NCBI RefSeq assembly: GCF_004138165.1
Contig: NZ_RYFF01000020.1
Location: 33,982-93,567 of the forward strand
Source: Candidatus Chloroploca sp. Khr17
Lineage (GTDB): Bacteria > Chloroflexota > Chloroflexia > Chloroflexales > Chloroflexaceae
DNA length: 59,586 nt
Reading direction: 5' to 3'
The notes beneath the pieces were generated by a model. That model did no database searches, was not told the DNA's origin, and saw only the letters and a list, made by a program, of their open reading frames with translations. This document shows positions 36,897 to 55,020 of this stretch, one piece after another (the first letter of the stretch is position 1; every line of letters starts with the position of its first letter). A program made the position numbers and the translations under genes.

Positions 36897-36931
36897 AACT
36901 GACTACAGATAAGAATACATAAGCGTACAAA

Positions 36932-37774
36932 TCAACGTGTTAAAGCGCGTTGAACCATTGCCGAAGGGCGCAGAGCTTGATCACTCTCGAGAAACGCCCG
37001 CGCCATCCGCATGGGTTGGTAGCGGCGCGAACCTACCACCACGACACTATCCTCAAGCGGATCCGCTAGATCCCAACGCCCCAGTCCATGACGTACCAGT
37101 ACCTCGCCGATGTAAGCACCAAATGTACGTACATTGGCTGTAAGCAGATCTTCATCCCGTAGGAATGTACGATGTTCATTGTCTACATTGAACTCGAAAC
37201 GTTCCAGGCTCTCGACGGAGTAGTCGAGAGCAAGATCTTCATAGAGTGCCGTACGAAAACGTTCAGCTAGGGTAGCCGGTTCGAGCTCTTCCGCATCCGT
37301 GTCTTCATCATACGTATCACCATTGAAGGCACGGTAGATGAGCTCAATGGTAGCTTGGAGGTGCGCTATCGTCTGAGTCACTGTTGCGGCCGTGAACGTT
37401 GGTAGTGGACGATCACAGATCAAGCAGAGGTCACGATCATGATCGAAAGATAGACATGCATCCACTAAGTCATTGTTCATTTGGCTCATTATCAATGCAA
37501 GGGGACTGATATCTTCCCCTTCCTCAGCCGCATACAAGGGCGTTATGCAAAAACGCACATACTCATCGCCAAGTGGCCCTATCTGGGGATATGCCATAAG
37601 ACGGAATGTGCCGCTCGTAGTAGGCCCAATCGGACACTCGATGTCGAAATAGATAATAGGTTGATCGCTATCAGGATCTTCAACGTCGTAGACAAGCCCT
37701 GCTGTGGTGAAAGCAGTCGTAAAAGATATAGACACAGGCTTACTCCTATTACGGTATCTGACGAATTTCCACAT
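36932..37774 (-). CDS. Acidic cytoplasmic hypothetical protein of 280 aa.
   Basis: ORF with reasonable codon usage. No recognised motifs. Confidence 0.5.
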   Translation of the reverse strand: MWKFVRYRNRSKPVSISFTTAFTTAGLVYDVEDPDSDQPIIYFDIECPIGPTTSGTFRLMAYPQIGPLGDEYVRFCITPLYAAEEGEDISPLALIMSQMNNDLVDACLSFDHDRDLCLICDRPLPTFTAATVTQTIAHLQATIELIYRAFNGDTYDEDTDAEELEPATLAERFRTALYEDLALDYSVESLERFEFNVDNEHRTFLRDEDLLTANVRTFGAYIGEVLVRHGLGRWDLADPLEDSVVVVGSRRYQPMRMARAFLESDQALRPSAMVQRALTR

Positions 37775-38390
37775 TTTTACGCTTCGCGGCTGTAATACGC
37801 TGCTTGATTATCGCATTTTGTTCAGGTGTGGTGTTCTTTGGCTTTGGAACCGCGACAACAAGATTGCTATTCTTGCTGGATAAAGCGTTTAATTCGGGAT
37901 TTTTATTTGATTTAAACTTCTTGTCCTTATAAGATTTGACTTGTGATATCTTTCTGTTGAGATTTTTTTGATCAACACCAGCGATACCCTTTACCGGTCG
38001 ATAATTTTCAATCAATTCAAATTTAAATTTTTTCGGATCAGTACTCCGCTTTAGCACCCTAAGTGTGTCAACACGTTTTCTATTCTCAAGTGCTACTTCA
38101 GAGAAAACATCTCCGCGCTTAATTTGCTTATAGTTTGGCGGTGTTTTTCCCTGCAAAGTAGTTGCAGACTTCGGTTTGCGATTGTGTAATTTTGCATGGT
38201 AATTTGTGGAGATTTTGTTGAATTTATGTCCATTAGCTGTATTTCGCCGCAGTTGTGTTCGCTTAAGCTCATTTGACGAAGAGACATTGCGTGCGGCAGC
38301 TTTCATTTTTGTTTTGGAGATCGGAACGGAGATGCTACTTCTATTTACTTTGGGTGTGCCATGCGTAGATTTGCTGCCAACTTTTTTCAT
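37749..38390 (-). CDS. Extremely Lys-rich basic low-complexity protein of 213 aa.
   Basis: MKKVGSKSTHGTPKVNRSS... with over 20% Lys. The coding DNA is only about 37-40% GC against the ~62% genome background. Confidence 0.5.
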   Translation of the reverse strand: MKKVGSKSTHGTPKVNRSSISVPISKTKMKAAARNVSSSNELKRTQLRRNTANGHKFNKISTNYHAKLHNRKPKSATTLQGKTPPNYKQIKRGDVFSEVALENRKRVDTLRVLKRSTDPKKFKFELIENYRPVKGIAGVDQKNLNRKISQVKSYKDKKFKSNKNPELNALSSKNSNLVVAVPKPKNTTPEQNAIIKQRITAAKRKNVEIRQIP

Positions 38391-38410
38391 TTCACACCCC
38401 TATACATTCA

Positions 38411-38977
38411 TTACTTCTTACGCACAATCTTTGGTCTGCCCTGGAAACGTCCGAGCCGCCGCGCCTGTTCGATATGCTGTTCGTTGCGCTCTTGCATCTG
38501 TGCAGCTTCAAAATCGCGCAGGATCTCGTCGGGTTTCTGTAGTGGTTCGGCATGGGGCATAAACATGCTGCTGAGTGCTGCCAACCCCACGAGACCATCA
38601 ACTGTCTTCACCGCAGTGTAGGCTTTGGCCTGATTGAACTTGCCTTTGAACCAATTTAGTTTAGATATTTGATTCGGTGTGGGGGATTTTGGCTGATTCG
38701 AGCCACGAACAGTAGGGTGCTGCAGACCTCCTCGCACGTTGCGTGTTGGCAACGTACTGCTTGGCTTCGCCTTAACTTGTTTTAGTGGTGGCGTCCGAAC
38801 CTTTGATGTTGGGTGCTTCGCCAGTTTGCGTGTCGCTTGCTGCAACTTGACTGGTGTAACCCGCTGCCGGGCGGTTGTTGAAGCAACTGGTTGTAGAGCA
38901 CGTACTGGCGGCGTAGGCTTTGGGGTATTGGGGTTGCTCACACCTGCCCCACTTTTAGTACTCCGATTAACCTTCAT
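38411..38977 (-). CDS. Basic Lys/Pro/Thr-rich protein of about 188 aa. It is a probable paralogue of the preceding gene (shared KVNRS N-terminus).
   Basis: Its ATG overlaps the TGA stop of the upstream ATPase gene (ATGA), which indicates translational coupling. Confidence 0.5.
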   Translation of the reverse strand: MKVNRSTKSGAGVSNPNTPKPTPPVRALQPVASTTARQRVTPVKLQQATRKLAKHPTSKVRTPPLKQVKAKPSSTLPTRNVRGGLQHPTVRGSNQPKSPTPNQISKLNWFKGKFNQAKAYTAVKTVDGLVGLAALSSMFMPHAEPLQKPDEILRDFEAAQMQERNEQHIEQARRLGRFQGRPKIVRKK

Positions 38978-41787
38978 GCGCCTGCTCCAATCAACATTTG
39001 CAGCACCTGGGCATCTACGGGTAAGCCCGAGTTGCGCATCCAATCAGCAGCCAAACGCAGGTAGACCCGTCGCACTTCGGCGTAGCGCGGGTGCGCACCA
39101 AATCGTGCCGTACAGATCTGCTCAATCTGGGTATGGTCCAGGGCACGATCTCCATAGCCCCCCAGAACATCTTCAATCGTTTCAGGCAAGCTATACCCAT
39201 CTTGTGCAAGCACCCACTTAGCTGCGGCATGGGGATCGTCCGGTAGGATGCTAACGGTCTGCACTTGGTTTGGCATCGGTGGCTGCCAGAGCGCCGCTGG
39301 CGGCATCTGCAACGGGCGGCGGGCCATCATCGCCTTCACGGCCTCATCGGAGTCATCAAAGATCGGGCGATCATCGGGCGTCTGAAAACGATCCAGGTAG
39401 TTGCCAACCTGCACGAAGATCGGGCGACTATCGGGGCCTCGTACAATCACTTGGCCCTGCCCGAGTGAGCGTACGTATTCGCGCTGACGCTCATTCAGGT
39501 TCATCACCTCACAGAAGAGCTTAAAGCTCTCCTGATCTTCGAGCCGATGCATGATTTTGAGGTTCGTATTGCCTAGCGCACCATTGACCAGTTGGGTTGG
39601 GATCTGCTCAGCGATCAAGATCCCTTCCCCAAACCCGCGCACCTCAGCCAAAATATTGGCGAAATCCTCTCCACCACGACTCCGTGCGTCAGCAAGATCT
39701 TCGCTACCCTTGTGTCCAGCCGACATAAGCCGATGGGCTTCTTCGATCAGAGTCATGTGCAGTTGTTTGCCGCGTTGTTCGGGTGGGAGGCGTTTGTAGC
39801 GGCTCTGCAATTCTTGGGTCAGTTGTACCAACAAAAAGGCCATAATCAGGGCGCTATCTTCGGGGGAGCCAACCCTTCCTAATTCCATGACGGTTGGCCG
39901 TGAGAGCACTACACTGAGCGGGGCTGGAGCCGTGGTATTGACAATTGTCCCTGCATTGAGCAGAAGATCACGCATGCGAATTTCGGCTGATTGGCGTACC
40001 CGGTCTTTGGCCTCCTCATCAAAGCCCGCCGTCATCAACTCGCTCACCGCAACGAGCGTCGTGTAGAACGCAGCCAAGGTGGGGGTGCCTACCCCCGGAT
40101 CGCCCCCCTTGCCCTGTTCGAGATTCCAACCTGCATCGGTATAGACCTGACGCAGGGCTGCGCGATAAATCGCTGGCAGAGGATCCCACATCGAGAAGGC
40201 GGCCATAAAACAGCGCATCAACAAACTGAGATGGGTCTTAAGCAAGATCCCCTCTGCCACGTAGAAGGGGTTGAAGCGGAAAGGCGTGGTGGTTTCATCA
40301 CCCAGCGTAAAAATTAGCAGATCGTCGGCCATTTGTGGGTCGGCCATGAGTAGCCGATAGTCCGGTTTGTCAATTGGGTACATCACCAGGAATGGTACCT
40401 GGTGGTCGGCCCAAAGTTGGGCCAGCATGTGCAGGCATGTGTTAGTTTTACCGCTTCCCGTAGCCCCTGCGATGAGACCGTGGCGGTTAAGGTCACGGAT
40501 CGGAATTTGCATATACTGGCCAGTACGCGTGCCACGATGGATGATCTCACCGAGGTTCAAACAGGGCACGTTGGTGAGCAGGCGATCGGTTGGCAAAACG
40601 AATGGCTCGTCGCGTACCTCAAGCCCGGGTAGATAACCACTCTCGGGGGGGATCGGCAGACGGAAGGCCCCCGCCGCTTGGTCGGTACTGACGAGATAGC
40701 GCAAGCGTACTGTCGCCTGATCAACGCGTGTTGGCCCCCAGGCTCCGTACTCAAGAAACGCAAAGTTATAACGTGCAATCGCCAGATCTTGATCATCCTT
40801 AGGGCTTTCGCTGGCCCATTGACGTGGCTCCGGCGTATTGTTTTGAATCAACTCGGAACCCAGCGCTTCCATTACATCATTAGGTGCATAATCCGATCCT
40901 ATCACTTGGATTTTTATGCGGAATAAATGATTTCTTTTGTTGATCAGAGGCATAAAGGTACGGGAAATATCATCAAAGCGTTCACGGCGATACAAATCAA
41001 ACCATGATTTGGACTCAACTTCTGCTGTGAGATTGCGATAACGTGAGAGCAGTAAGTTAATCTGGAGTAGCTCTTCGTGGAAGAGCACTGTTGGTCGCAA
41101 GCAGATGCTTGCGACACAGGTTTGCTCTTGTTGCACCAGCGTTTCTAAGAAGCGGCCAAAAGCAGAAGCATCAAAAACTGGACTAAAGGGATGTGGGAAG
41201 TAGCCAATGGCATCAGTACCTGCGTATGGATCAAAATCCTCAAACTTGCGAATCTCGACCAATTGGTTCATGCCTACCTGTTCAATGGGAATAGGTAACA
41301 TTGAACGCATGAAGTCGTCTTCGCCTAACGGCTCTAATGGGTAGTTGAAAGGATCTTCGAGAGGGTAGTGACTACGAAACTTGCACCAGAGCTGCCAGCA
41401 CAGATTTTTGGCGCGATTGCGGTTGGGATGGAAAGCCTTGCCAAGAAAGACAATCTCAATGGTTGGGCGATGTCCTGTCACTTGACTTGGTCGAGCAATA
41501 AACCGCAGATCGAAGGCGGCACTACCCTCGGCAATCATCCGAGCGTTGATCAAATCATTCAGGAAGCGGATTTGACGCAGCGTAATCAACCGAATACGAC
41601 TCAGTTCACCTCCACTGAGCGTACGCGTGAAATCGCTGGTTAAAAAACTAGGAATGAACGGCACCCGTGCTGCAAAGATAGCGTGCGCCCCCTGCTGGCG
41701 AGTGACTTGCACCCCACTACCCCCCCAACTCTCGGCATAGTGGAACTCATCGGGATTGCTGACGTAGATGAACGGCTCTTGCAACAT
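38974..41787 (-). CDS. HerA/FtsK-superfamily (DUF87/AAA_10-type) P-loop ATPase of 937 aa with a large N-terminal extension.
   Basis: Walker A GATGSGKTNT; Walker B plus EAH block HMTLIEEAHRL; sensor KIMHRL. AGGAAGG Shine-Dalgarno sequence upstream. Confidence 0.75.
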   Translation of the reverse strand: MLQEPFIYVSNPDEFHYAESWGGSGVQVTRQQGAHAIFAARVPFIPSFLTSDFTRTLSGGELSRIRLITLRQIRFLNDLINARMIAEGSAAFDLRFIARPSQVTGHRPTIEIVFLGKAFHPNRNRAKNLCWQLWCKFRSHYPLEDPFNYPLEPLGEDDFMRSMLPIPIEQVGMNQLVEIRKFEDFDPYAGTDAIGYFPHPFSPVFDASAFGRFLETLVQQEQTCVASICLRPTVLFHEELLQINLLLSRYRNLTAEVESKSWFDLYRRERFDDISRTFMPLINKRNHLFRIKIQVIGSDYAPNDVMEALGSELIQNNTPEPRQWASESPKDDQDLAIARYNFAFLEYGAWGPTRVDQATVRLRYLVSTDQAAGAFRLPIPPESGYLPGLEVRDEPFVLPTDRLLTNVPCLNLGEIIHRGTRTGQYMQIPIRDLNRHGLIAGATGSGKTNTCLHMLAQLWADHQVPFLVMYPIDKPDYRLLMADPQMADDLLIFTLGDETTTPFRFNPFYVAEGILLKTHLSLLMRCFMAAFSMWDPLPAIYRAALRQVYTDAGWNLEQGKGGDPGVGTPTLAAFYTTLVAVSELMTAGFDEEAKDRVRQSAEIRMRDLLLNAGTIVNTTAPAPLSVVLSRPTVMELGRVGSPEDSALIMAFLLVQLTQELQSRYKRLPPEQRGKQLHMTLIEEAHRLMSAGHKGSEDLADARSRGGEDFANILAEVRGFGEGILIAEQIPTQLVNGALGNTNLKIMHRLEDQESFKLFCEVMNLNERQREYVRSLGQGQVIVRGPDSRPIFVQVGNYLDRFQTPDDRPIFDDSDEAVKAMMARRPLQMPPAALWQPPMPNQVQTVSILPDDPHAAAKWVLAQDGYSLPETIEDVLGGYGDRALDHTQIEQICTARFGAHPRYAEVRRVYLRLAADWMRNSGLPVDAQVLQMLIGAGA

Positions 41788-41806
41788 ACGGGTGCCTTCC
41801 TGATCA

Positions 41807-43195
41807 CTAAGCGTAAGCGGTCATAACGGCTTCGACCAGCACAAGTAGATCGCACTGGGGCGTCCAGTTAGCGAGCGGTTCAGGCATGAAGCGCTGCTCT
41901 TGTCCATCGAACTCTACAAACATAGTTGGAGCCTCTTGGGGATACCGAGCCGTACAACTAAAATAGATGCCGAGGGTGTGCCCAAGCTGATCACGCAGGC
42001 TGACACTGACCAGGAAGACGTTCGCATCTTCGTGTAGGGCGGCGTTTAGTCCCTGTGCTAGCATTGCGCCTATCTCGTTGCGCAGGCGTTCGCCAGCACC
42101 TGCGCCGCTGAAGCGTGCGACGGGTGACGGTAAAGCGGGAACAGTCACACCATACATCCCTCCGAGAGTAGCTGTAGGTGGGGCTACGGCCTGTCCGGTG
42201 AGCGCCCCAAGCAACACCTGTTGAAGGTCATTGCTACCTGCCGCCGATGTCCCCATCGGCAGCATCCCCGCCTTCGCCATCTCGGTCAGGGCCAGTAAGC
42301 GTTGTCCATCTGTTTGCGCTTTATCACCAAAGACACGCGTGTACATGTCTGGATTGGTCAGCAAGAGATATTGCGGTGTCAATTCAATCATGCGCGAGAT
42401 ATTCATCTGTGTGAGCGCCTGTGCCATCGCAATCTCGGCCTGCGAGTTCGCCTGGATCTTCGCGACCTCGGCATCAGTTTGCGCCTCGCGGGTACGCATA
42501 TAAACGTCACGTAATTTCTTGTCCAGTTCTTCAGCACCCGCAATACGCGTGATCTGGACGTTCGAGACTCGTATTCCCAAGTTGTCTTCAATGCCGCGTT
42601 GCTGCAATTGCTGTGCAACCATGTAACCTGCATGACCGCCCGCCTGGAAATCCTGGTATTTAGCAATTGATGCAGTGATCGAACGAATTGATTCCATCAC
42701 CGTATCATAGAGCCTCGTGAGCGGCTGTTCGACGACAAGCGCAACGTGTTCAGGATGAATTATCTGATAACTGACTGCAACATCGAGATCAACTGGCAAT
42801 GCAATCTTCTCACCCTGGGGCGGCTGATAGAAAATCGTAAACTCCTTCGTCGTTGTTATATCCAGCGTGCGCTCACGCGTATTGACCACGTAGAGATCAA
42901 TGCGATTCATCACGGGAAACGAGAGCGCGTGATAACTCCCTTCTTGCAGCACTTCGAGCACTCTGCCATCCCCGGTCACAACGACGGTAGTGCCAGCCAT
43001 AACCCGAAAGATACGAAAGATACTGGTGAAGACATTGTTATGAACACGTACTGGACCAAAGACAAGGGGTGAATTACTTAGATCAGCAAACGGTTCACGC
43101 AGGAAGTCATCAAGCGAGCCCTGTCTGCTCGCTGCTTCCTTATCGTTAACGTGACGACGGTTTAGGGGCATGGTCTGGTCACGGTTAGTTCCCAT
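41807..43195 (-). CDS. SPFH/band-7 (stomatin/prohibitin-like) domain protein with a C-terminal UEV/RWD-like (inactive E2) domain.
   Basis: SPFH core VVVTGDGRVLEVLQEGSYH...DLDVAVSYQI plus a coiled-coil segment. C-terminal block GIYFSCTARYPQEAPTMFVEFDG carries the YPxxxP flap and lacks a catalytic Cys. Start placed at the ATG with an AGGAAGGAG Shine-Dalgarno sequence at 43195. Confidence 0.7.
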   Translation of the reverse strand: MGTNRDQTMPLNRRHVNDKEAASRQGSLDDFLREPFADLSNSPLVFGPVRVHNNVFTSIFRIFRVMAGTTVVVTGDGRVLEVLQEGSYHALSFPVMNRIDLYVVNTRERTLDITTTKEFTIFYQPPQGEKIALPVDLDVAVSYQIIHPEHVALVVEQPLTRLYDTVMESIRSITASIAKYQDFQAGGHAGYMVAQQLQQRGIEDNLGIRVSNVQITRIAGAEELDKKLRDVYMRTREAQTDAEVAKIQANSQAEIAMAQALTQMNISRMIELTPQYLLLTNPDMYTRVFGDKAQTDGQRLLALTEMAKAGMLPMGTSAAGSNDLQQVLLGALTGQAVAPPTATLGGMYGVTVPALPSPVARFSGAGAGERLRNEIGAMLAQGLNAALHEDANVFLVSVSLRDQLGHTLGIYFSCTARYPQEAPTMFVEFDGQEQRFMPEPLANWTPQCDLLVLVEAVMTAYA

Positions 43196-43229
43196 ACGAG
43201 CCAACTCCTTCCTGAGGCGCACAAGGTTG

Positions 43230-44453
43230 TTAGGTTTGATTGGGTAATATGCTAAGCTGAATGACCGGAAGATCAGCCAAGATGTCCGAAGCTTCGGCGG
43301 CTGCTTCTTGTTCACTCATCTTGAGGCTTTCGGCTACGAAAGCTGAATAGTTGCACACCGGACATTGAGCATTCTTCGGCACATCAATGAAGAGGCTCTC
43401 TAACGGCTGTTGAAAGATCCACTCCGCACGATTACCGAAGAGGAGCCAGTTCGTCGGCAGATCCGGTAGCGTGTTCTGCTTATCGCGCAGAAGCGTTAGT
43501 AACGCCATACGCGCCATTAACAGCGCAATCATACCCACATCAACCCCTAGACCTGGCTGAGCCAGTAATTCTTCCATACGTGCGGGATCTTCGTAACCCA
43601 GCGAGAAATCCTGTGTAGCGGCAGGGGGAGGGCCAAAAAAATCGGCAATGACGGTCTGAAAACAGGCGTAGCAAGCACCCTCGGAGGGAATTGCACGGAA
43701 GATATCACCCCCAAAGGCGCGATTGTAGGCTGCGGCATAGATAGCCGGGATCCCTCTTGGCCAGCACACGGTATTGACCGCCAACTTTGAGTCTTCATGA
43801 TCAGTAGCGACCACAACCAGATCACACCCGGTAACAATGGTAGCTAGTTGATCCTCATGGCCTAACACGTTCAACTCGTAGGTCTCGACGGTAATTGCGG
43901 GCGAGATGTCGTAGAGCAGATCGCGCAGGGCACGGGTCTTATAGCGCCCGATATCGTGGAGGCCACACGCATGACGTGCAATATTGTGAACTTTGAGCCG
44001 ATCAAAATCCACCAACCGCATCTGCCCTACTCCGCAACGAGCAAGCTGGCTCGCCACCACTGAACCACCTGAGCCGAGGCCAATCACGGCAATGCACGTA
44101 TTGGCGAGGCTGCTCACTTCAAAGATGCCGTGCATACGTGAGGCATAGTCAGTATGCAAACGGATGACGTTGCAGGAAATCGTTTCCCATCCAGTAGCCT
44201 TGCTTTGCCAACCAGCAACCTGATCTGGCAACTCATCGTCAATGTTGAGGACTATTTCTTCCGGGGCCAGTTCTGTTGTTGGCGGTACAGGGCTGCGATA
44301 CCAGCGACCTAGGTACGCACCGGACGCCTCAAGGATTCCCCTGATTTGCACGACATCGCCATCGTCATAACGGTAGCCGTAGAGCTTGCCCTCTGTCTGT
44401 GCAGCAGTACCAAGCAACTGGTTAATCAAGCTATCAGGAACGGTAAGAAACAT
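43230..44453 (-). CDS. E1-like ubiquitin-activating enzyme of the ThiF/MoeB/HesA family, with an N-terminal extension and a C-terminal Cys cluster.
   Basis: VIGLGSGGSVVASQLARCGVGQMRLVDFDRLKVHNIARH (GxGxxG plus a D-x-D ... NxxR block); LVVVATDH; CPVCNYS. Confidence 0.8.
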   Translation of the reverse strand: MFLTVPDSLINQLLGTAAQTEGKLYGYRYDDGDVVQIRGILEASGAYLGRWYRSPVPPTTELAPEEIVLNIDDELPDQVAGWQSKATGWETISCNVIRLHTDYASRMHGIFEVSSLANTCIAVIGLGSGGSVVASQLARCGVGQMRLVDFDRLKVHNIARHACGLHDIGRYKTRALRDLLYDISPAITVETYELNVLGHEDQLATIVTGCDLVVVATDHEDSKLAVNTVCWPRGIPAIYAAAYNRAFGGDIFRAIPSEGACYACFQTVIADFFGPPPAATQDFSLGYEDPARMEELLAQPGLGVDVGMIALLMARMALLTLLRDKQNTLPDLPTNWLLFGNRAEWIFQQPLESLFIDVPKNAQCPVCNYSAFVAESLKMSEQEAAAEASDILADLPVIQLSILPNQT

Positions 44454-44464
44454 CGGCAGACTCC

Positions 44465-45865
44465 CTATTGCAGTGGCTTCCCTTGATCTGGTTGAACCGA
44501 TGTTGGAAATACATAGCTGCGGTTGAACTCAGCGCAGAGGTCAGCCGCACTACGACAGGCCAGTTCAACTTGACGTACGATCAGACGACCTTGAAATTCG
44601 AGCAACTCACCAATGCGCTGGGATGGACGTGGTTGGGTCAAGGTTTCAAGCACATTGCGCACTACATCACGTAGGCGTATATGGGTACGCCAACCACCAG
44701 GAAAGAGTTGTTCAGTCACAATACGTACTACGTTATCATCACTCAACACGACTTGGACTTCAGGCGCTTGCTGCGGAAACTGTGAACCAGGATCAAGCTT
44801 AATAGCTTTGATCTGTAGCGGCTCTGTTTGCGCAACTGGCGCGACATTTACCATCCCCTCCGGCGTTTGCTGGGGTGCTGGGATTATCTCAGGGATATTC
44901 AGGGTCATTAGGGGCGGATGCGTAAAGGTAATCGTATACCAAACTCCGTTATCATCGCGCGTATGTACCTCCAGATGCGCCCCAGATCGCAAGGTCTGGC
45001 AGTACTGTTCCAGATCCTGTTGTTCGCGTGCAAAGCGGCCAGGAAGGGGAGGGATTGGCGGAATGCTTGCATCAGGTGGTGAACCTGAGAAAGGTGGTAT
45101 TTCAGGCGGCACGAAATCAGTCGCTGAACGACGAGTGTAAGAGGAACTTTCTAGATCGATGACCTCCAGGGTATCAGGAGGTTCCACATCTAGTGTGTAA
45201 GGTGAGGTATGTGGCTGCACCGGAGGATGGGAATGCAGATTGGCCCGGGCAGCACGGAGATCGGCCGGGTTGACTCCCCAGCGATCAGCAGTTCCTGATG
45301 TTGCGTGAGGAGGTTTTGGCGCAACTGTCTGTTGTTCTAGCGCAACCAGACCATCCAACAAGACGCGAAGGTCGCCTTCGACAAGCTCACATGGCACAGG
45401 CGTCGCACTCATCGTCTCACGGGGATAGTAGTGCCCATGGAGCAGAAATGTACCATCTTCAATGGTTACAAGTGGGGTGAAGATACCGTGGGGCAAATGA
45501 TAGGACTCATCGCTCAAGATATCGACCACCTGAAGCGTATCACCCGAACTTGGCCGATGCAAACCTGGCGGATGCTTATGCCACTCACCAACATAATCAA
45601 CGTGGTAGGTGGCGTAGTGCTGACGCCACGTTTCCAGGTCGCGTTGGCGAGCAAGTGCATCTGGAGCATAGGTATGCGCCCGTCGGTCGGCATTGCTACC
45701 AGGACCAGAGGCTGCCACAACGACGAGGTGGAGTCCATCGGGGAGTTGGAACATACGTCCAACCAGGATGCCGCCGGTCTCACGTCCAGGGCTCGTACAT
45801 GCCTCGTCGTACATCCGCTGATAGACATCTTGTTGGGCCAGATAGACGGTATTTGGTACTGGCAT
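44465..45865 (-). CDS. JAMM/JAB (MPN+) metalloprotease, a deubiquitinase-like protein, with a long Pro-rich C-terminal extension.
   Basis: ETGGILVG (Glu) and GEWHKHPPGLHRPSSGD (HxHx7SxxD). The start follows the E2 stop by 1 nt. Confidence 0.8.
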   Translation of the reverse strand: MPVPNTVYLAQQDVYQRMYDEACTSPGRETGGILVGRMFQLPDGLHLVVVAASGPGSNADRRAHTYAPDALARQRDLETWRQHYATYHVDYVGEWHKHPPGLHRPSSGDTLQVVDILSDESYHLPHGIFTPLVTIEDGTFLLHGHYYPRETMSATPVPCELVEGDLRVLLDGLVALEQQTVAPKPPHATSGTADRWGVNPADLRAARANLHSHPPVQPHTSPYTLDVEPPDTLEVIDLESSSYTRRSATDFVPPEIPPFSGSPPDASIPPIPPLPGRFAREQQDLEQYCQTLRSGAHLEVHTRDDNGVWYTITFTHPPLMTLNIPEIIPAPQQTPEGMVNVAPVAQTEPLQIKAIKLDPGSQFPQQAPEVQVVLSDDNVVRIVTEQLFPGGWRTHIRLRDVVRNVLETLTQPRPSQRIGELLEFQGRLIVRQVELACRSAADLCAEFNRSYVFPTSVQPDQGKPLQ

Positions 45866-45866
45866 G

Positions 45867-46322
45867 TTAGTCTGCCTCAATTCCAGGCCAATAGGTTTTC
45901 CCTGACTCAAGCCAGGTTTCGTAGGCAAAGAACCAAGCGGCGGCTACCGCGATCACGGTTGCTGCCGTGGTTTGCTGGGCAAACGAACGATCACCAGGGT
46001 AGTAGAGGCATAGGTGTCCATCGTTATACTGGTGCTTGAGGCGGCCTGCTTGCTCGTCCTTCCAGACGGTAATCGCTGGGTTAATGGGATAAACTTTAGG
46101 CGGATCATCGGGAAAGTTGTCAGGATAGTAGAGTGCAATCTCATAGCGCCTTTCGCGATTACTCTCTAAGGTGCCGATCCAGACCAACTGGTTACTATCA
46201 CGCACGAGCTGAAACTGGGGAAAGCGCGTTTCCATAGCTCTCTTTTCCAGTACGAGTCGTGCGGGATTAAGGTCATACCACGCTGCATACCAGCGCATCG
46301 GACGGAGAATAGTTTGGCCCAT
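45867..46322 (-). CDS. E2-like ubiquitin-conjugating enzyme with a prokaryotic UBC fold and a catalytic Cys.
   Basis: ALYYPDNFPDDPPKVYPINP flap plus HQYNDGHLCLYYPGD. This is analogous to the UBC HPN...GxICL active site. Confidence 0.75.
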   Translation of the reverse strand: MGQTILRPMRWYAAWYDLNPARLVLEKRAMETRFPQFQLVRDSNQLVWIGTLESNRERRYEIALYYPDNFPDDPPKVYPINPAITVWKDEQAGRLKHQYNDGHLCLYYPGDRSFAQQTTAATVIAVAAAWFFAYETWLESGKTYWPGIEAD

Positions 46323-46387
46323 CGTAACTACCCTTATTCGTTGCTGCTTAACAGTGCTTTAGATGTCTATGTCCACAAGTGGATCGT

Positions 46388-46588
46388 TTATGCTCGTGTA
46401 AATAGGGCAAACCAGCGCTGCGGTTTAAGCACTGTCTTGCTCTGTGGATCGGTCTGCGCGACCTTGGGATCTTCTGGGACGTGCATCTTGCCATCCGGAC
46501 TGACGACAACTTCCTGTGCGGTGGCAAGACGCTTCTTAAGTTCTTCCAGGCTGGATTGTGGGCTACGAGGGGGTTGTGGCGTGCTCAT
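46388..46588 (-). CDS. Small hydrophilic ORF of 66 aa in the 318-nt gap between the membrane UEV gene and the E2 gene. Its coding status is doubtful.
   Basis: MSTPQPPRSPQSSLEELKKRL... There is no beta-grasp-like hydrophobic pattern and no C-terminal GlyGly. Confidence 0.2.
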   Translation of the reverse strand: MSTPQPPRSPQSSLEELKKRLATAQEVVVSPDGKMHVPEDPKVAQTDPQSKTVLKPQRWFALFTRA

Positions 46589-46640
46589 GGTGGTGTACCT
46601 CCTGGGATTTGCTGACACGACTGGTATACGTACAAGGGAA

Positions 46641-47357
46641 TTAGATAATACGTTCGGTATATTGTGCCCAAACCGACTGTTGCGTCGGTGGCTGGTTCGT
46701 GACTTGAGCATAAGAAATGAGGCCCAAAAGGTTGTTGACCACTGCCAGCAGTGAACTATTGCCATTCCAACTGCGCAGAACAGACGAATCAAGTGCGAGG
46801 TGATGTTCGGCTAGTTCACCACAGGCATCAAACCCGAGCATGGTGGCAATGAGCTGCGGTGCGATAATTGGATAGTCATCCGTACAAATGAGATGGATCG
46901 AGACATTCTCCCCATCACTCCGTGCCACCCGGATCTGAACACAGTACTCTTCGACATCCGGGCGCCCGGCGAGGCTCACCGCCTCGTAACCATTACTGCG
47001 TAACTTCGCTACTTCTTGCGTCAAACGTTGCACCACATTTATTGGGGTAACATCAATCACTTGGCGACTTGCAACTGGGGTTCCGGCTGGTGTAAAACCA
47101 CCCGCGCCGGAACTCCAGGTTGGTACCTGCGATGAAAGCGTCGAAGTGTCTTCATGGATTGGCATTGGAGGCGGGCGCATGGTGGGACTAGCCGGTGGGA
47201 GAATGAACGCTTTACCCTGTTTTGATGTTACTTCTGATTGGCTCGTTGTGGCGCGTCGCCCACTCCCGCCTCGTTGGAGTACGAAGACAACGAGGATCAG
47301 GACGACGAGAACGAGGACGCCCCCACCAGCAATGATCAGCAGAATTGATGTATCCAA
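46641..47357 (-). CDS. N-terminally membrane-anchored protein with a C-terminal UEV/RWD-like domain.
   Basis: TM segment ILLIIAGGGVLVLVVLILVVFVL. The UEV-like block EEYCVQIRVARSDGENVSIHLICTDDYPIIAPQL has no Cys at the catalytic position. TTG start preceded by an AGGAGG Shine-Dalgarno sequence. Confidence 0.6.
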   Translation of the reverse strand: MDTSILLIIAGGGVLVLVVLILVVFVLQRGGSGRRATTSQSEVTSKQGKAFILPPASPTMRPPPMPIHEDTSTLSSQVPTWSSGAGGFTPAGTPVASRQVIDVTPINVVQRLTQEVAKLRSNGYEAVSLAGRPDVEEYCVQIRVARSDGENVSIHLICTDDYPIIAPQLIATMLGFDACGELAEHHLALDSSVLRSWNGNSSLLAVVNNLLGLISYAQVTNQPPTQQSVWAQYTERII

Positions 47358-47365
47358 GACGCCTC

Positions 47366-49150
47366 CTAGCGGGGTATGATGCGTACCAGATAAGTCGCAC
47401 TGGTACTCAGATCCAGGTTCGCTTCGCCTACCATCGGCAATTCCGCCAGGCTCAGCAAGTAACGTCCACTGGGTAGGGCCGCACTCGCGACACCTGTCTG
47501 ATCAGTCACGATCTGGCGATTGCCGCTCGATCCCACAAGGTTGAGTACCAGATTAGAGGTAGGTGCAATAATCAGCAGATTGACCGGATCGCCATTGATC
47601 TGCGTTGCGAGACGACGATCCGTAAGCAAACGCGTCCATTCAGATGCATCGAGTCGGGTTGTAATGATTTGATAGGCACTCGTGCTTGCAAGCAAAGCTT
47701 CGGCTTCGCGCTTGAGTTGGCGCGCACTTTCCCCACGATCCTCTGCAACCTGAGCAAGGCTAAGTGCGGCGTTGGCCTGAGCGAGCGCGTCGGTGCCAAC
47801 TGTCCCGCCGCGTTCGAGCAAGGCTAGACCGTAACCGACATAAGAATCGTAGAGCCACTGCTCGACGGTGCGTACCGCAGGGTCGCTTGTGTTAGGCCTT
47901 AATTGCACGGCCTGTTCAAGTTCGCTGATCAGGGCGGGCCATGTAGCGACACTTGCATCGCGGAATTGTGTCGCCCGTGCAATCCACTTCAAACGATCAG
48001 CTAGTCCTTCAAGATCTTGCTCCAGAGTTGCAGCAAGTACATAATGCTCGTGAGACTCAATGACATCCGTGGCAAAGAGGAGGTCACCCCATGCCAGCTG
48101 GGCTTGTGCCAAGCGGGTCTTGACGCCTATCGCTGCTTCAGGACTCTGCGCTTCAGGGTGGAGAACATGGATCTGTTCAAGCAGGGCTACTACTTGTGCC
48201 CAACTTGCCGTGGTATTCACTGCCCATAGTTGCTCGGCCTCAGTCCAGAGCGTCTTCGTCCGGGCTTCGATAACAGCAACTAGTCCAGCCTGAGCATCAG
48301 AGGAGGCTGGATCAAGCGCGAGAGCCTGGCGAAACATGGCTTCCGCCTGATCAAGTTGGTTCGCTTCGAGGAGTGCGGACGCATAACGCTCATAGGCGGT
48401 GATGAGCGGGATTGGATTGGCAACCAGGCTACCGCAACTACCACCCACCCCGCTCTGACCACGGTTGTGCATTGCTTCGAGGGTATGGGTTACTTGCGCG
48501 AGGGATTCGCGATCACCGACTGCATAGGCTTGAGCCACGAACTGCTGCTCGGAAGCGCACGGATCGTAGAGCAAGGTATAGTAGAGTAGCAACCCCCCGG
48601 CAATGAGCAGGGTGACACCTCCACCTACCACGGCTAAGATCTTCCCTGTGGCGGAACGACGCGTTGGGGTAGGAAGGGGACGTTCTTCACGAGGTGGCAA
48701 CTCCTTAGGGAATGGCACATCAAGTGGTGGCATGGGGGCCACCGGTTCAGCAATGCGTGCAAGCCGTAGATTGGAACTCTGTACGCTGTCCTGGACTTCC
48801 AGAACGATTTCGTAGAGCATCTGGCGACTCGACCAACTGAGACGGGTTTTTGACTCGACATCAATCGGGAGTTCTTGTAACTCGCCGTAGCTTGTTGTGC
48901 CGGGTGTGGTCACGGTGACCACAAGATTGGGCGCCGTAGCTGGAAAATTTGCATCAAGCTGGAAGTAGAGATGCACCGGCTGTGGCCCTTCGTGCGTGTC
49001 ACGAACCAACTCTACTGTTAAGTAGTAGCGCTGAGCACTCGCGTCCTGCTGGAGGTCGCAAGCATAGCCCATATCACGGATGGCCTTGACCTCTTGACCA
49101 ATGCGCTCAGCGTGACTTTGGTCAGCGGCCATGGGGGGGAGGGATGACAT
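47366..49150 (-). CDS. N-terminal UEV/RWD-like domain, then one TM helix, then an extracytoplasmic TPR-like helical-repeat region. 594 aa.
   Basis: YYLTVELVRDTHEGPQPVHLYFQLDANFPATAPNLVV; TM segment ILAVVGGGVTLLIAGGLLLYYTLLY; TPR-like repeats. Confidence 0.65.
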   Translation of the reverse strand: MSSLPPMAADQSHAERIGQEVKAIRDMGYACDLQQDASAQRYYLTVELVRDTHEGPQPVHLYFQLDANFPATAPNLVVTVTTPGTTSYGELQELPIDVESKTRLSWSSRQMLYEIVLEVQDSVQSSNLRLARIAEPVAPMPPLDVPFPKELPPREERPLPTPTRRSATGKILAVVGGGVTLLIAGGLLLYYTLLYDPCASEQQFVAQAYAVGDRESLAQVTHTLEAMHNRGQSGVGGSCGSLVANPIPLITAYERYASALLEANQLDQAEAMFRQALALDPASSDAQAGLVAVIEARTKTLWTEAEQLWAVNTTASWAQVVALLEQIHVLHPEAQSPEAAIGVKTRLAQAQLAWGDLLFATDVIESHEHYVLAATLEQDLEGLADRLKWIARATQFRDASVATWPALISELEQAVQLRPNTSDPAVRTVEQWLYDSYVGYGLALLERGGTVGTDALAQANAALSLAQVAEDRGESARQLKREAEALLASTSAYQIITTRLDASEWTRLLTDRRLATQINGDPVNLLIIAPTSNLVLNLVGSSGNRQIVTDQTGVASAALPSGRYLLSLAELPMVGEANLDLSTSATYLVRIIPR

Positions 49151-49207
49151 AGCAACTACTCTCTTGTAAGCGACGCGAATGCCCAGCGTTGACGAGCCTT
49201 ACGAAAC

Positions 49208-50017
49208 TCAGATCCGGCCATAGAGATCAGTAACAATCGTTGCCAGACGACACGAACCGTCCCAGGGGAAGAAGATTCCGGAACCAATATTGAGCGAGGT
49301 GCCATGGCGCTCGACAACCACGGAAGGTGGTTGCTGAGGGTAAGTTGGCTCACACACCATATAGATCGTCGTCCCATCCTGTGGTCGGGTAACGGTTACG
49401 CAGCACGTGCCGTCTTGGAGGGTATTGATCTGGACGGTGCCAAATTGGGCCAGTGCTATGCGCTCACCAGCGATACGCTCGGCGAGATCCAAACTAGGAC
49501 GAGGTGTGGCTCCCCCTACCGTCTGGTGCGGGCTAGGTGGTGGATCAGGTGGTAGTAATGGCCCCGAACTACGTAGCCCAGCAGTAGGGGAGGCGTTCGT
49601 TCTAGCTATGAGTCCGCTCGTCCGGAGATTGCCGTCCGACCTAGAGGCTATAGTAGGCCCGCGGCCCATTGAACTGCCAAGCACGAGGCCAAGCAGTAGG
49701 CCGGGAGCTGTCCCAAGCAGCATTGCCACACTGTACATACGCAAACTCCCAAGGGCTAGTCCTAGATTATCGCTCAGCAGCATATTTAGGACACCACAAA
49801 GCAGCACAAAGACGAGCGCACTAGCTGCGGGGCCAACGAAGATCGCCCAGTGGTAACCTTGTGCGACACGCCCGCGTAAGAGTAGACCTCCACCCAGGCC
49901 CCCGATGATCAGCCCGATCATTGCCAGAGCTAGAACCACCAGCGGGTTCGTGCTGATCAATAGGCCCATGCCCAGGAAGAAGAGACAACTGACGATGATA
50001 ACCATTGCTGCAAGCAT
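49208..50017 (-). CDS. Four-TM membrane domain fused to a C-terminal UEV/RWD-like domain.
   Basis: N-terminal 4 hydrophobic helices. C-terminal block TTIYMVCEPTYPQQPPSVVVERHG. Confidence 0.6.
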   Translation of the reverse strand: MLAAMVIIVSCLFFLGMGLLISTNPLVVLALAMIGLIIGGLGGGLLLRGRVAQGYHWAIFVGPAASALVFVLLCGVLNMLLSDNLGLALGSLRMYSVAMLLGTAPGLLLGLVLGSSMGRGPTIASRSDGNLRTSGLIARTNASPTAGLRSSGPLLPPDPPPSPHQTVGGATPRPSLDLAERIAGERIALAQFGTVQINTLQDGTCCVTVTRPQDGTTIYMVCEPTYPQQPPSVVVERHGTSLNIGSGIFFPWDGSCRLATIVTDLYGRI

Positions 50018-50020
50018 GGG

Positions 50021-52735
50021 TTATTCCTCCAGGCTAACAGTAATTTTGTAGTATTTCGATTTCTCGAAGCTAAACTCAATTGCTGTTGATCGAATTTTTG
50101 TTTCACCACCTACTGATTCCACTGTCAGTCTATTGCGGCCATCAATATTCATAAACTTAAAGCTTACACGAATTTCAGAATCTCCTCCTCTTAAAATTGC
50201 ATCACTAGGCCCTACGAGAAGTACATTAACATTTGGAGGCGGCGTTCCACCATTGGCTTCGGTCATCTCATTCTCTGAAATTTCACTAATTGCGATTCTA
50301 TATAGGGGCCATGTAGCTTCCTCAGCCGTTTGGGTTTGGGTTTGGGCTTGCGCCAGAGCCTCCGCTTGTGCGGTAGCAGCAACAGCAGAGGCTGTGGCTT
50401 CAGCATTAGCGGTGGCACTAGCAGCAGCAGCAGCAGCAGCAGTAGCGCTGGCCTGGGCCACAGCCGTGGTCGTTTGCGCCTGTGCGGTTGCGGCGGGGTT
50501 AGGTGTGGGGCGGGGTGTAGAGACATCAGCAGCCAAGGCACGATTAGCACTTTCCTTTAGCTTGGCAACTGTCTCTGCTGTCTCTGCTGTCTCTGCTGAG
50601 CTCGGCCTGACGGCTTCACTACCAAAGTCGTCGAGTTGCTCCAGCAAGCTTAATGCGTCTAAGACCGCACGCCAATCAGTACGATTGAGCGCCTCTTCAA
50701 CTTCAGACCATAACTCATCGGCCTGCGTCTGGGTAGTATTGGCATCATCAATGGACTGATCTAATGCATCATCACCACGCTCATTCGTACGCAAAAAATC
50801 TGCATTTACCCTGGCTTCATTGATCTGAGCCTGTGCATCGTCAAGCTTCCCATCCCGCCAGAGAGCACGGGCATATTTTAGGCGGGTCTCAGACTGGATT
50901 TTAGCCACGTCTGATATGCGTGGATCACCTCCTTGAAATGCAACAGGATCCGGTAAAAGGCCAGTAGTTGCTACAATTTCGTCAAGGATCCTCACCGCCT
51001 GTTGCCAATTACCATCGTCTACTGCTTTATCGTAGCTGGCCCACTCGGCCTCTAACCGCTGCACGTCACCAAGAGCATCAACAGCTTGACGGATCTCAGT
51101 ACGTAGTGCGCTGAGTTCCTCCTGTAAGGAGCGCGAGATTTGGCTGTCATTGCCTTCCGGCCAATTAGTAGATAACAGCGTTCGTGCCTCTACCAGTTTC
51201 TGTGCTTCCACGTTTTCAGTATCAATCTTTGTACGCACCTCGGCCATGAGCACTTTCACGAACCAATCGTTAGCTCGTTGCTTCGCTTCGTCATCCATAC
51301 TCAAAGCAGCACGCTGAGCCTGCTTCGCTACCTCGCGTGCGAGGTCGAACTCAGGTGGCTCAGCAGCAAGATAATCGTTGATTAACAGTAGGCGCGCATC
51401 ATGGATCAATTGCGTGATGTCGCGTCCTCGTGGGTCCGTAGTTTCACCTTCTTTAAGTCGTTCCTGTAACTTAGCAATGCGCTCTGAAAGCGAGAGGTTA
51501 GGATTATCTATTTCGATCCACATAGCGATGGCGGTCTGGGTTTGGGTAGCCTGAAGAGCAGCAGTCGCCGTTGCGTCGCTCGCTGTCTGATCCAGAGTTA
51601 AAGTTGCGCTAGGTGTCTGTTCGATCCCAGTCAATGGTTCCTGGCCCTGTGGTTGACCAACCTGCTCACCACTGGACCAGATCTGCCAACCGACAAAGCC
51701 AAATAAACCAAGCGCTACGAGTGATAAGGCCGCAACGAGAACAACAAAGCCTCCATTCTGGCGTTTCCTTGCCGCAGTTCTCGATGGCGGCGAAACCGGG
51801 CTAGGCGTTGATGGATGCACGACAGGAGCAATGGGCAGTGCAGCGGCGACGGGCATCGCACGAAGAACGCCCTCGACTACATCAACCAAGTGTGAATTGC
51901 CGTTATGATAGGTCCACTGGTTAATCACACCATCATCGTTCTGTGGCAACGCAGTGCCAGCCCGTTCAATGGCTACCAGGGCCGGTGGTACTCGTGGGAA
52001 GTCATTCGGGGCCATCAGATAGATCGTGAGATCAGGATGCTGGTTCGTGCGGACTTCAAAGAAGAAATTCGTATCTTGGCTCTTCAGCGTCACCTGATAG
52101 CCCCGCTCACGAAGCAAACGATGCTCTTCGCCAATACGATCATTGATCGGTGGGCTGCTTGCACCATCAGCTCGCTCGCGCTGGATCAGAGGATGCTCAT
52201 CATCAATTTCATGCACACGTGAAGCCTGAATTTCTACAAAAGGCTCACGCCGTTGCGCCATTTGGCGACTCATGTAGTAGTAACGGATGGTAAACTCACC
52301 GCGATCAACCCAGACAATCGGGTTAATGATCTCATTGATTTTATAGGCCGGATCGCGAAAGACGGCATGGGCAGTGGCGACATCACCCGCACTAAATGTC
52401 TGGTAACGTGCAGGATGTTTATGCCATGTGCCGATATAATCTGTTTTCGGGTAGCGGGCGTGATATTCTTGTAACTTACCGTTAACATAGTCAATGTCGG
52501 GATTAAATTCCACCGGATGGTGATACGCATTTTCACCCGGCCCAGTGGCTGCAATGATCAATAGCTGAACGATCTCTTCCCCATCAAGACGTCGTCCAAC
52601 CAGGATGCCCCCAGTCTCATTTTCCAAACTCGTTGTACTACCTCGCCGGGCTTCCTCTTCAATCAGGCGGCGGGCTGAACGCGTGATATAAATCTTACCA
52701 GGGAGCGGTGACTTCTGGGTACTGAGCTGTGACAT
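50021..52735 (-). CDS. First gene of the island, 904 aa. It has a JAMM/JAB protease domain, a UEV/RWD-like domain, one TM helix, and a long coiled-coil/Ala-rich extracytoplasmic region with a small C-terminal beta-domain.
   Basis: ETGGILVG and GTWHKHPARYQTFSAGD (JAMM); FFFEVRTNQHPDLTIYLMAPNDFPRVPPALV (UEV flap); TM segment FVVLVAALSLVALGLFGFVGWQIW. The last 270 nt are very low in GC. Confidence 0.75.
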   Translation of the reverse strand: MSQLSTQKSPLPGKIYITRSARRLIEEEARRGSTTSLENETGGILVGRRLDGEEIVQLLIIAATGPGENAYHHPVEFNPDIDYVNGKLQEYHARYPKTDYIGTWHKHPARYQTFSAGDVATAHAVFRDPAYKINEIINPIVWVDRGEFTIRYYYMSRQMAQRREPFVEIQASRVHEIDDEHPLIQRERADGASSPPINDRIGEEHRLLRERGYQVTLKSQDTNFFFEVRTNQHPDLTIYLMAPNDFPRVPPALVAIERAGTALPQNDDGVINQWTYHNGNSHLVDVVEGVLRAMPVAAALPIAPVVHPSTPSPVSPPSRTAARKRQNGGFVVLVAALSLVALGLFGFVGWQIWSSGEQVGQPQGQEPLTGIEQTPSATLTLDQTASDATATAALQATQTQTAIAMWIEIDNPNLSLSERIAKLQERLKEGETTDPRGRDITQLIHDARLLLINDYLAAEPPEFDLAREVAKQAQRAALSMDDEAKQRANDWFVKVLMAEVRTKIDTENVEAQKLVEARTLLSTNWPEGNDSQISRSLQEELSALRTEIRQAVDALGDVQRLEAEWASYDKAVDDGNWQQAVRILDEIVATTGLLPDPVAFQGGDPRISDVAKIQSETRLKYARALWRDGKLDDAQAQINEARVNADFLRTNERGDDALDQSIDDANTTQTQADELWSEVEEALNRTDWRAVLDALSLLEQLDDFGSEAVRPSSAETAETAETVAKLKESANRALAADVSTPRPTPNPAATAQAQTTTAVAQASATAAAAAAASATANAEATASAVAATAQAEALAQAQTQTQTAEEATWPLYRIAISEISENEMTEANGGTPPPNVNVLLVGPSDAILRGGDSEIRVSFKFMNIDGRNRLTVESVGGETKIRSTAIEFSFEKSKYYKITVSLEE

Positions 52736-53202
52736 GCATCCTCCGAGACGACATGGGGTGCGAACGTTAGGACATCACTTTCTGATGAACATAATCTTGA
52801 TTCTTGAATAAGGTTCAGCGTCTTAATCTTGGTGAGCGATCTCTCTCTATAATCTTAGTAACAATCTTTGGAGGTTTGCGCTTGTGTTTTTTGCTCTGGT
52901 TGATCAAGGTGGTCAGGCTTGAACGCAGGGAAGCAGCGCACGCGGGCATGGTGACCGTGGTCGCTCGGTGAACGAACGAGATTCTTCAGTTCTTGGTTCG
53001 CATATGTACCGCAATTGCAGCTTCGGGCCGTGAACCGCGCGGCTTGTGGGCAGCGAAGGCTACCTGCGTGGCCTGATCCAGCCGACGAAGGTCGGCTTTG
53101 CCATGCGTCGCCGCCGCGTTGACGCCGACGGTCTGGGCGGATGGGTGCGTTCTGCCGGTTGGGGAATTTGCGCGCCTGGCTTTAGTGTCGTATCATGATA
53201 CT

Positions 53203-53469
53203 ATGGAGCTAAGCAGTCGCCACCGCAAGATGCTACGGGCCGTTTTTGCTGATCCCGTTCGCGCTGACGTGAAGTGGGCGGACGTTGAGACGCTGCTGCA
53301 TGCGCTTGGTGTCGACATTGGCGAAGGAAGAGGGTTACGCGTCCGGATCCAACTCAACGGTGTGCGCGCCGTCTTTCATCGACCGCATCCTATCCCGGAT
53401 ACCGACAAAGGTGCGCTTAGGTCATTACGACGGTTCCTAATAGAAGCAGGTGTGAAGCCGGAGGAATGA
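53203..53469 (+). CDS. hicA: HicA-like (YcfA family) type II toxin, an mRNA interferase.
   Basis: KMLRAVFADP...DVETLLHALG...GVRAVFHRPHP...ALRSLRRFLIEAGV fits the HicA pattern GSH...HP...vtvPhP...l..aGl. Start uncertain; the ORF track begins at 53098. Confidence 0.6.
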   Translation: MELSSRHRKMLRAVFADPVRADVKWADVETLLHALGVDIGEGRGLRVRIQLNGVRAVFHRPHPIPDTDKGALRSLRRFLIEAGVKPEE

Positions 53470-53472
53470 GCC

Positions 53473-54956: not shown

Positions 54957-54984
54957 GCCCAATGCGCTGTAACAAAGATGTTTT

Positions 54985-55005: not shown

Positions 55006-55020
55006 CTTGATGTATCTCCA

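Follow-up and report, generated by a model that had tools for sequence, protein, structure and literature searches.

A small protein with an aromatic C-terminal tail as candidate modifier of a Cap2/Cap3-type E1/E2/JAB operon in Candidatus Chloroploca

To our knowledge, every E1-E2 cascade characterised so far transfers a beta-grasp protein or, in CBASS (antiphage signalling by means of cyclic oligonucleotides), a whole enzyme, and does so via a C-terminus ending in Gly or Ala. The operon described here is from Candidatus Chloroploca sp. Khr17 (contig NZ_RYFF01000020.1, positions 33,982 to 93,567). This whole stretch of 59,586 nucleotides, termed the window, is numbered from its first letter, and all operon features given below are on the minus strand. 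The JAB, E1 and small proteins discussed here match annotated proteins of this filamentous Chloroflexi bacterium with 100% identity. The operon encodes an E1, an E2 and JAB metalloproteases, and the absence of an evident ubiquitin-like protein (Ubl) gene is puzzling. A gene of 66 amino acids (46388–46588), situated directly upstream of the E2 gene, is proposed as the source of the E1/E2 substrate and thus as the operon's equivalent of ubiquitin. This assignment is considered moderately probable.

In type II CBASS, the substrate is a non-Ubl protein with a disordered, conserved C-terminal tail. The E1 domain of Cap2 grips no more than the last ∼7 residues of this tail and forms the acyl-adenylate, and cleavage by Cap3 falls exactly behind the final residue of the substrate (bioRxiv 10.1101/2022.03.31.486616). 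The E1, E2 and JAB proteins of the window score best against the Cap2, E2-CBASS and Cap3/JAB models of PADLOC (E1-E2 5.7e-41, E2 1.9e-24, JAB 2.3e-15) and by sequence are Cap2/Cap3-type enzymes. The E2 gene (45867–46322) encodes 151 amino acids of the E2-CBASS family, and the catalytic residue, Cys105 in the sequence DGHLCLY, is invariant across aligned homologues. E2 homologues carry PF26395, and the closest solved structure is that of a CBASS E2 (PDB 8hsb_B, E = 0.0013); a lookup with the exact window E2 sequence matched no existing record.

The Cap3-like JAB domain (45326–45865) comprises residues 1–180 of a 466 amino acid protein (44465–45865), and its JAMM residues E29, H96-x-H98, S106 and D109 are invariant. 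The earlier note, which had been made from the sequence alone, gave this protein 487 amino acids. An open reading frame of that length, with a TTG start, does extend from 44465 to 45928. The annotated protein and 16 homologues, however, start at M22 (ATG at 45865), one base past the E2 stop codon. The Cap2-like E1 (43230–44453) has a ThiF/Cap2-like adenylation domain (43269–44156) in which the catalytic Asp/Arg/Lys residues, the GxGxxG motif and two CxxC pairs (C261/C264 and C364/C367) are conserved.

The likeness to type II CBASS extends to the probable substrate, which would be the short, extended and conserved C-terminal peptide of a protein that is not beta-grasp. There are also differences. 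E1 and E2 are separate proteins here and the JAB gene lies between them, whereas Cap2 is a fusion. The presumed substrate is usually a free mini-protein of ∼60 amino acids, sometimes in tandem, and its tail ends in Arg-Trp-Phe/Tyr and not in Gly or Ala. In addition, the E1 carries an inactive MPN domain and the operon is rich in UEV/RWD domains. No operon protein matches a cyclase (CD-NTase) model in PADLOC or Pfam, save the E2, whose match is to the E2 portion (positions 422–537) of a model for a cyclase-E2 fusion (PDLC00816). No SAVED, STING, patatin or similar cyclic-nucleotide effector domain is present among the 13 operon proteins scanned.

Pup resembles the 66 amino acid product in being small (∼60 amino acids), hydrophilic, largely unstructured in appearance and not beta-grasp. 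The Pup C-terminus is GGQ or GGE, and the glutamine-synthetase-like enzymes PafA/Dop attach it via a side-chain carboxylate. Here the partners are instead an E1, an E2 and a JAB protein, and the tail ends in RW[F/Y]. The sequence is not similar to that of Pup, and no operon protein matches the PafA/Dop family.

The Bil (BilABCD) and Bub systems and operon types 6a–6e (Iyer et al. 2006) share with this locus the logic of modifier, E2, JAB and E1. These operons are also described as encoding poly-modifier precursors, fusions of a modifier with E2, and E2/RWD-like domains that are inactive (PMC1779556; PMC7159879). Their modifiers are beta-grasp Ubls with a C-terminal Gly, whereas the small protein, with its variable linker, is far too short and has no match among Ubl profiles. 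The enzymes of the window are also nearer to Cap2 and Cap3 than to BilD or BubC. Thus, Cap2-type conjugation and Bil/Bub-like operon logic are known; what would be new is a dedicated mini-substrate that belongs to no described family, is not beta-grasp and has no Gly end.

The 66 amino acid open reading frame is found in a 318 nucleotide gap (46323–46640) between the E2 gene and the end, at 46641, of a gene for a 238 amino acid protein. The earlier note had correctly placed both the gap and the reading frame and had listed the latter as one of three candidate sites for the missing Ubl, but had called it doubtful. The doubt has not stood. The translation is MSTPQPPRSPQSSLEELKKRLATAQEVVVSPDGKMHVPEDPKVAQTDPQSKTVLKPQRWFALFTRA. 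Residues 1–60 (46409–46588) close in the tail TVLKPQRWF, and residues 61–66, ALFTRA (46391–46408), form an unconserved extension. A Shine-Dalgarno sequence, AGGAGG (46598–46603), can be read 9 nucleotides upstream of the ATG at 46588. In all four orthologues of the same length that were compared, differences are mostly at third codon positions. For the Oscillochloris orthologue, 60 codons show 8, 6 and 32 differences at the first, second and third positions; 28 of the codon changes are synonymous and 10 non-synonymous. Judged by this codon pattern, the gene is under purifying selection. An NCBI entry for the protein already exists as a hypothetical protein. In Oscillochloris trichoides DG-6 (GL501402.1; locus L001/L010, 9287–9475) the gene is intact, encodes 62 amino acids and is uncalled in the record used, which is an annotation gap. 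Together with its position beside E2, discussed below, these properties make it virtually certain that the reading frame is a real and integral gene of the E1/E2/JAB system.

A profile search of 1.84 billion protein representatives yields 41 clusters of related small proteins, 21 of them at E ≤ 1e-10. Members have ∼50–70 amino acids and consist of an N-terminal block, a variable linker and a tail, which together are termed the module. The N-terminal block, SLEELKKRL-x3-AQEVVV-x3-G-x-[ML]-x2-P, is probably a helix plus a hairpin. The linker is rich in Pro, Gln and Ser and differs in length by up to ∼25 residues. The tail reads T-V-[LV]-K-P-x-R-W-[F/Y]. Among 36 cluster representatives, G33, P56, R58 and W59 are invariant and the final residue is F or Y. 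A pattern search of genomes with [KR]T[VT][LV]KPQRW finds at least four genomes, a lower bound on the distribution at genome level. A tblastn search of PLSDB plasmids with the module and with the E2 gave no matches.

The size of the small protein, its variable linker and the absence of profile matches suggest that it is not beta-grasp. The conserved blocks are only ∼25 and 9 amino acids long, and repeat units fused to E2 are ∼42 amino acids, short of the ∼65 or more structured residues of a beta-grasp fold. There is no significant match to any family, Ubl families included, in Pfam, NCBIfam or PDB profile searches, and the invariant end is R-W-[F/Y] in place of a C-terminal Gly-Gly or Gly. No description of the protein or of its RW[F/Y] tail was found in the full-text literature, where many subscription journals are outside the coverage. 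The lack of a Pfam or NCBIfam model represents a further annotation gap.

The location of the module is highly conserved. Homologous loci were first gathered through homologues of the JAB protein, and in every locus so reached, including that of Oscillochloris trichoides, the small gene is directly upstream of E2. A second scan, of metagenome sequences, was seeded with E2 alone and was therefore blind to the small gene. It gave 15 loci with E2 identities of 47–84%. The module is immediately upstream of E2 or fused to it in all 13 that have upstream DNA, and nine of these are new, distinct loci. The remaining two are cut at a contig edge; locus L018 begins inside a tail-like ...TVIKAQRWF that is fused to E2. 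Some loci are reduced to module-E2-E1 (L011, L023) and others to module-E2-short JAB-E1 (L005, L019, L022, L025). The minimal conserved core is module-E2-E1.

Several architectures of the module are those of a precursor. Fifteen of the 36 cluster representatives end exactly at RW[F/Y], and the other 21 carry 1–25 unconserved residues beyond it. P0054, encoded upstream of E2-JAB-E1, consists of two modules in tandem, and P0085, P0091 and L021 are E2s with two or three short modules fused to the N-terminus. P0085 is encoded in L008, where a JAB-E1 fusion with an active JAB comes after module-E2. The internal copies of tandems and E2 fusions would have their tails exposed only after endoproteolysis, which follows the logic of polyubiquitin. 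Tandem, fused and extended copies thus look like hallmarks of a precursor.

A further architecture is that of P0078 (in L009, region 2526–8476), an AAA_16-type NTPase of 1547 amino acids whose last 58 residues are a module with the end ...TVLKPQRWF. Its gene has E2 and a short E1 immediately downstream, and VMAP-C/CHAT and AAA genes on its upstream side. This layout is CBASS-like, with the NTPase in the place of the cyclase, as CD-NTase is found with Cap2. P0078 also holds an RWD-like stretch.

The steps proposed for the small protein are drawn by analogy with Cap2 and Cap3 of type II CBASS. JAB would remove all residues past the final aromatic residue of the tail (Phe60 in this protein), here ALFTRA and elsewhere a further copy in tandem or an E2 in fusion. 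The Cap2-like E1 would bind the extended tail and adenylate the new C-terminal carboxylate, that of Phe60. The tag would then pass as a thioester to Cys105 of E2 and from there to amino groups of targets, and JAB may also undo the conjugation. In its full form, the proposal is of a protein modifier class in which a 'mini-ubiquitin' of ∼45–60 residues, not beta-grasp, consists of a helix-hairpin handle, a flexible linker and a K-P-x-R-W-[F/Y] tail. Its precursor, whether extended, in tandem or fused to E2 or an NTPase, would be trimmed by JAB, activated at the aromatic end by a Cap2-type E1 and conjugated by a CBASS-type E2, in filamentous Chloroflexi and cyanobacteria, as part of a conflict or signalling system associated with the membrane. 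For this full form the chances appear evenly balanced, and there is a fair chance that the protein represents a new class of protein tag.

If this is true, neither a beta-grasp fold nor a glycine end is required for an E1-E2 cascade, and the system would be an intermediate between CBASS, where the enzyme itself is conjugated, and ubiquitin, where a dedicated tag is. It would also explain why no Ubl is found. The tag would provide a handle on a large membrane-associated operon that has two JABs, six UEV/RWD domains, an SPFH protein and a HerA-like ATPase. Since it is tiny and easily synthesised, the tag would be a directly testable substrate and handy for work on E1 specificity.

Three properties weigh against the small protein being a modifier. 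The aromatic C-terminus is the main difficulty: the E1s of ubiquitin, of Ubls and of Cap2 activate Gly or Ala C-termini, and we know of no precedent for a bulky Phe or Tyr. Secondly, L011 and L023 have no JAB beside E2-E1, although L011 has one upstream, in a 904 amino acid protein. Thirdly, three family members have no E2 or E1 nearby in the available DNA. One (L013, 8001–8189) is among glycosyltransferase genes in a gammaproteobacterial metagenome-assembled genome, one (L031, 1315–1497) is beside a HepT/MNT toxin-antitoxin pair, and one (L032) has a coiled-coil and transmembrane extension. The first two belong to a sub-clade, ...EEIR..I....H[IV]V[IV]...G.[IV]H.PE.AA..., and have no E2, E1 or JAB in the available flanks.

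Both the aromatic end, which is unlike that of known E1 substrates, and the orphan modules without a nearby E1 or E2 would suit an accessory factor. The small protein might be a pseudo-substrate inhibitor or regulator seated in the E1 or JAB site, or a cleavage bait that switches the system on, and the E1 and E2 would then modify something else. A peptide at the E2 N-terminus also fits. A scan of the window for the tail pattern finds two places only, the tail of the small gene and the start of E2, where residues 4–12 (46287–46313) read TILRPMRWY and resemble the modifier tail TVLKPQRWF. The native E2 N-terminus is MGQTILRPMRWY, followed by AAWY. This 'pseudo-tail', with the consensus T-x-L-x-P-x-R-W-[Y/H/F] 2–5 residues ahead of the E2 core, occurs at 11 of the 15 distinct E2 N-termini (including L001, L002, L005, L006, L014, L015, L019 and L029), and L004, L009, L011 and L012 lack it. 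Peptides of this kind may dock or inhibit. The pseudo-tail might be left over from modifier-E2 fusions, mark a place where JAB cleaves, or serve as a docking or pseudo-substrate element.

Nevertheless, an accessory role is considered unlikely. Tandem copies, exact RW[F/Y] ends, variable extensions and the copy at the C-terminus of the NTPase suit the need for a free C-terminus. Moreover, the operon offers no other substrate with a conserved C-terminus: when the C-termini of the HerA-like, SPFH, 238 amino acid and E1 proteins are compared among orthologues, none is conserved.

This comparison bears equally on the possibility that the small gene is incidental. The role of modifier would then fall to a canonical Ubl from another part of the genome or, in the manner of CD-NTase and Cap2, to the C-terminal end of some other protein of the operon. 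The visible DNA is 59.6 kb of the genome, and the HerA-like protein has the end ...IGAGA, which resembles Gly/Ala-ended E1 substrates. Its orthologues, however, end in TTP, TRT, MTS and GAK, and the ...GAGA end was therefore rejected as a Cap2-style substrate. The small gene, on the other hand, accompanies E2-E1 wherever a locus is informative, even in minimal loci without HerA and SPFH. As stated in the earlier note, there is no standalone beta-grasp or GG-ended Ubl gene: the window has no free small GG-ended open reading frame, and each of those of 45–160 amino acids with GG in the last 10 residues is wholly inside a reading frame of 200 amino acids or more. Nothing requires a Ubl encoded elsewhere, and an incidental small gene appears quite improbable.

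The small protein might alternatively be the precursor of a ribosomally synthesised and post-translationally modified peptide (RiPP). The N-terminal block would be the leader, the KPxRW[F/Y] stretch the core that is modified or adenylated by the E1-like enzyme, and JAB the leader peptidase. The MccB/MccA and PaaA/PaaP pairs similarly combine an E1-fold adenylating enzyme with the C-terminus of a short non-Ubl peptide, and MccB and PaaA are both among the structural matches of the E1 domain. Repeated cores in a precursor are common in such pathways, and a RiPP peptide model of NCBIfam has a match that is not significant (E = 0.014, 3 of 36 members). But the known pairs have no E2 or JAB, yield small-molecule antibiotics and have E1s with an N-terminal peptide-clamp domain. 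Here there is always an E2, with its invariant Cys, and the operon of the window adds six UEV/RWD domains; this points to protein conjugation. The likeness to MccB is confined to the adenylation domain, and the N-terminus of the E1 is MPN-like and unlike the MccB clamp. The module also terminates an NTPase of 1547 amino acids, and no exporter or immunity gene is recognised. This explanation is therefore very improbable.

A Ubl fused into the operon, as the C-terminal tail of JAB or the N-terminal ∼100 residues of E1, is next to impossible: other bacterial systems do have Ubls fused to peptidases or to E2s (PMC7159879) and the JAB tail contains a GG, but the GG is variable and mid-domain, the tail is absent in the short JABs of L005, L018–L020, L022, L024 and L025, and fold predictions have already refuted the idea.

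The two regions were the other candidates of the earlier note, which had suggested that their folds be predicted; both fail because the predicted folds are not beta-grasp. An AlphaFold2 model of the JAB protein, built on 16 homologues, shows a confident JAB domain at residues 1–180, a disordered linker at ∼183–270 and a C-terminal domain in the order helix, four or five strands, helices. This domain (residues 272–450; 44516–45052) is predicted to be an inactive E2/UEV/RWD fold plus helices. The tail sequence quoted earlier, ...VVLSDDNVVRIVTEQLFPGGWRTH..., is indeed in the JAB reading frame and has the motif LFPGGWRTH, with the non-conserved FPGGW in the C-terminal domain. Homologues have PGGW, PIGW, PAGW, ASGW or AGKA at this place. 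The only invariant Cys of the tail, C289, is in the first helix and away from the active-site position. Sister systems whose short JAB lacks the tail keep the module, and the tail was rejected as a fused Ubl.

The E1 N-terminus was rightly described as unassigned, since Pfam and PADLOC cover the protein only from residue ∼67 or 115 onward. Residues 1–97 (44163–44453) are predicted to adopt an inactive MPN-like fold without a JAMM motif and match the inactive MPN protein Rpn8. The domain is absent in L009, a related system that retains the tag, and was likewise rejected as a Ubl. The active JAB is encoded immediately upstream, and the arrangement resembles, at the level of the fold, the MPN+/MPN− pair Rpn11-Rpn8. 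Perhaps the MPN domain of E1 pairs with the active JAB in this manner.

The JAB tail is one of six paralogous UEV/RWD-like domains within the operon (41807–52735), an unusual concentration. The others are in proteins of 904, 269, 594 and 238 amino acids and in the SPFH protein. The six thus sit on two JAB proteins, three membrane/TPR proteins and the SPFH protein, beside one active E2. Phmmer matches within the window alone link the paralogues at 1e-4 to 1e-8, and hhalign links them to the tail and E2 profiles at 1e-5 to 2.5e-7. The profiles share cross-recruited sequences, so that paralogue-to-paralogue probabilities are inflated and the window-only phmmer matches are the cleaner evidence. 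When the JAB-tail profile is compared by hhalign with single operon proteins, the expected regions are aligned but are not significant. The tail, as modelled, and the five paralogues, as linked by sequence, appear to have an E2 fold without a catalytic cysteine. At the fold level they resemble the catalytically dead E2 folds of eukaryotic UEV and RWD proteins such as Mms2, Tsg101 and RWDD3. Judged from the positions of the transmembrane helices, the domains are expected to be anchored to the membrane on its cytoplasmic side. At this inner face they may read the tag, dock it or be its targets.

The long operon extends over ∼35.6–52.7 kb of the window. Its first gene encodes the 904 amino acid protein (50021–52735), which has a second active-looking JAB (Pfam Prok-JAB, PADLOC JAB), a UEV/RWD-like domain at residues 185–300, a transmembrane helix and a long C-terminal region. 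The JAMM residues (E, HxH, S, D) are conserved in both JABs of the operon. Next is a multi-transmembrane protein of 269 amino acids (49208–50017) with a C-terminal UEV/RWD-like domain (175–269), assigned through phmmer and hhalign paralogy. The 594 amino acid protein (47366–49150) has an RWD-like domain at residues 1–135 (Pfam RWD E = 0.0031, and paralogy), followed by a transmembrane helix and TPR families. The 238 amino acid protein (46641–47357) has an N-terminal transmembrane helix and then a UEV/RWD-like domain (105–238) assigned by paralogy; its Oscillochloris orthologue has a weak Pfam RWD match.

Downstream of E1, the SPFH/Band-7 protein (41807–43315; Pfam Band_7 2.5e-08) has its UEV/RWD-like domain, assigned by paralogy, at the C-terminus (395–502). 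The listed GTG start overlaps the 3′ end of the E1 gene. Since orthologues are 451–472 amino acids in length, the true start is probably ∼40 codons downstream. The HerA/FtsK-like ATPase (38974–41787; 937 amino acids; Pfam HerA_C, PADLOC mad8/HerA) is a conserved member of the large form of the operon and is followed by four further genes.

The G+C content of the operon region (35000–53000) is 0.47–0.57, with a minimum at 36–39 kb, and that of the upstream half of the window is ∼0.60. Housekeeping genes flank the operon, among them those for phosphoenolpyruvate carboxylase (32001–34748) and 2-oxoglutarate dehydrogenase (10638–13433). The lower G+C content and the housekeeping flanks would fit an acquired island.

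Downstream of the HerA-like gene, a protein of 213 amino acids (37749–38390) shows a weak match to CDI_toxin_EC869_like, a restriction-endonuclease-like toxin (E = 0.0015). A 240 amino acid protein of the same Pfam family is found in the equivalent place in L004 (9297–10019). The 213 amino acid protein may be an effector nuclease.

On the plus strand, a sigma-70-family gene diverges from the operon and is followed by a protein that by eye is anti-sigma-like (54153–56084). A Sigma70_r2 gene and an HTH_17 gene have the same relative place in L002 (327–2138) and L006 (829–2115), and the divergent sigma-70 gene may be a dedicated regulator of the operon. Just upstream of the first gene of the operon, also on the plus strand (53098–53793), adjacent genes of 123 and 106 amino acids have by eye the look of a HicA/HicB-type toxin-antitoxin pair.

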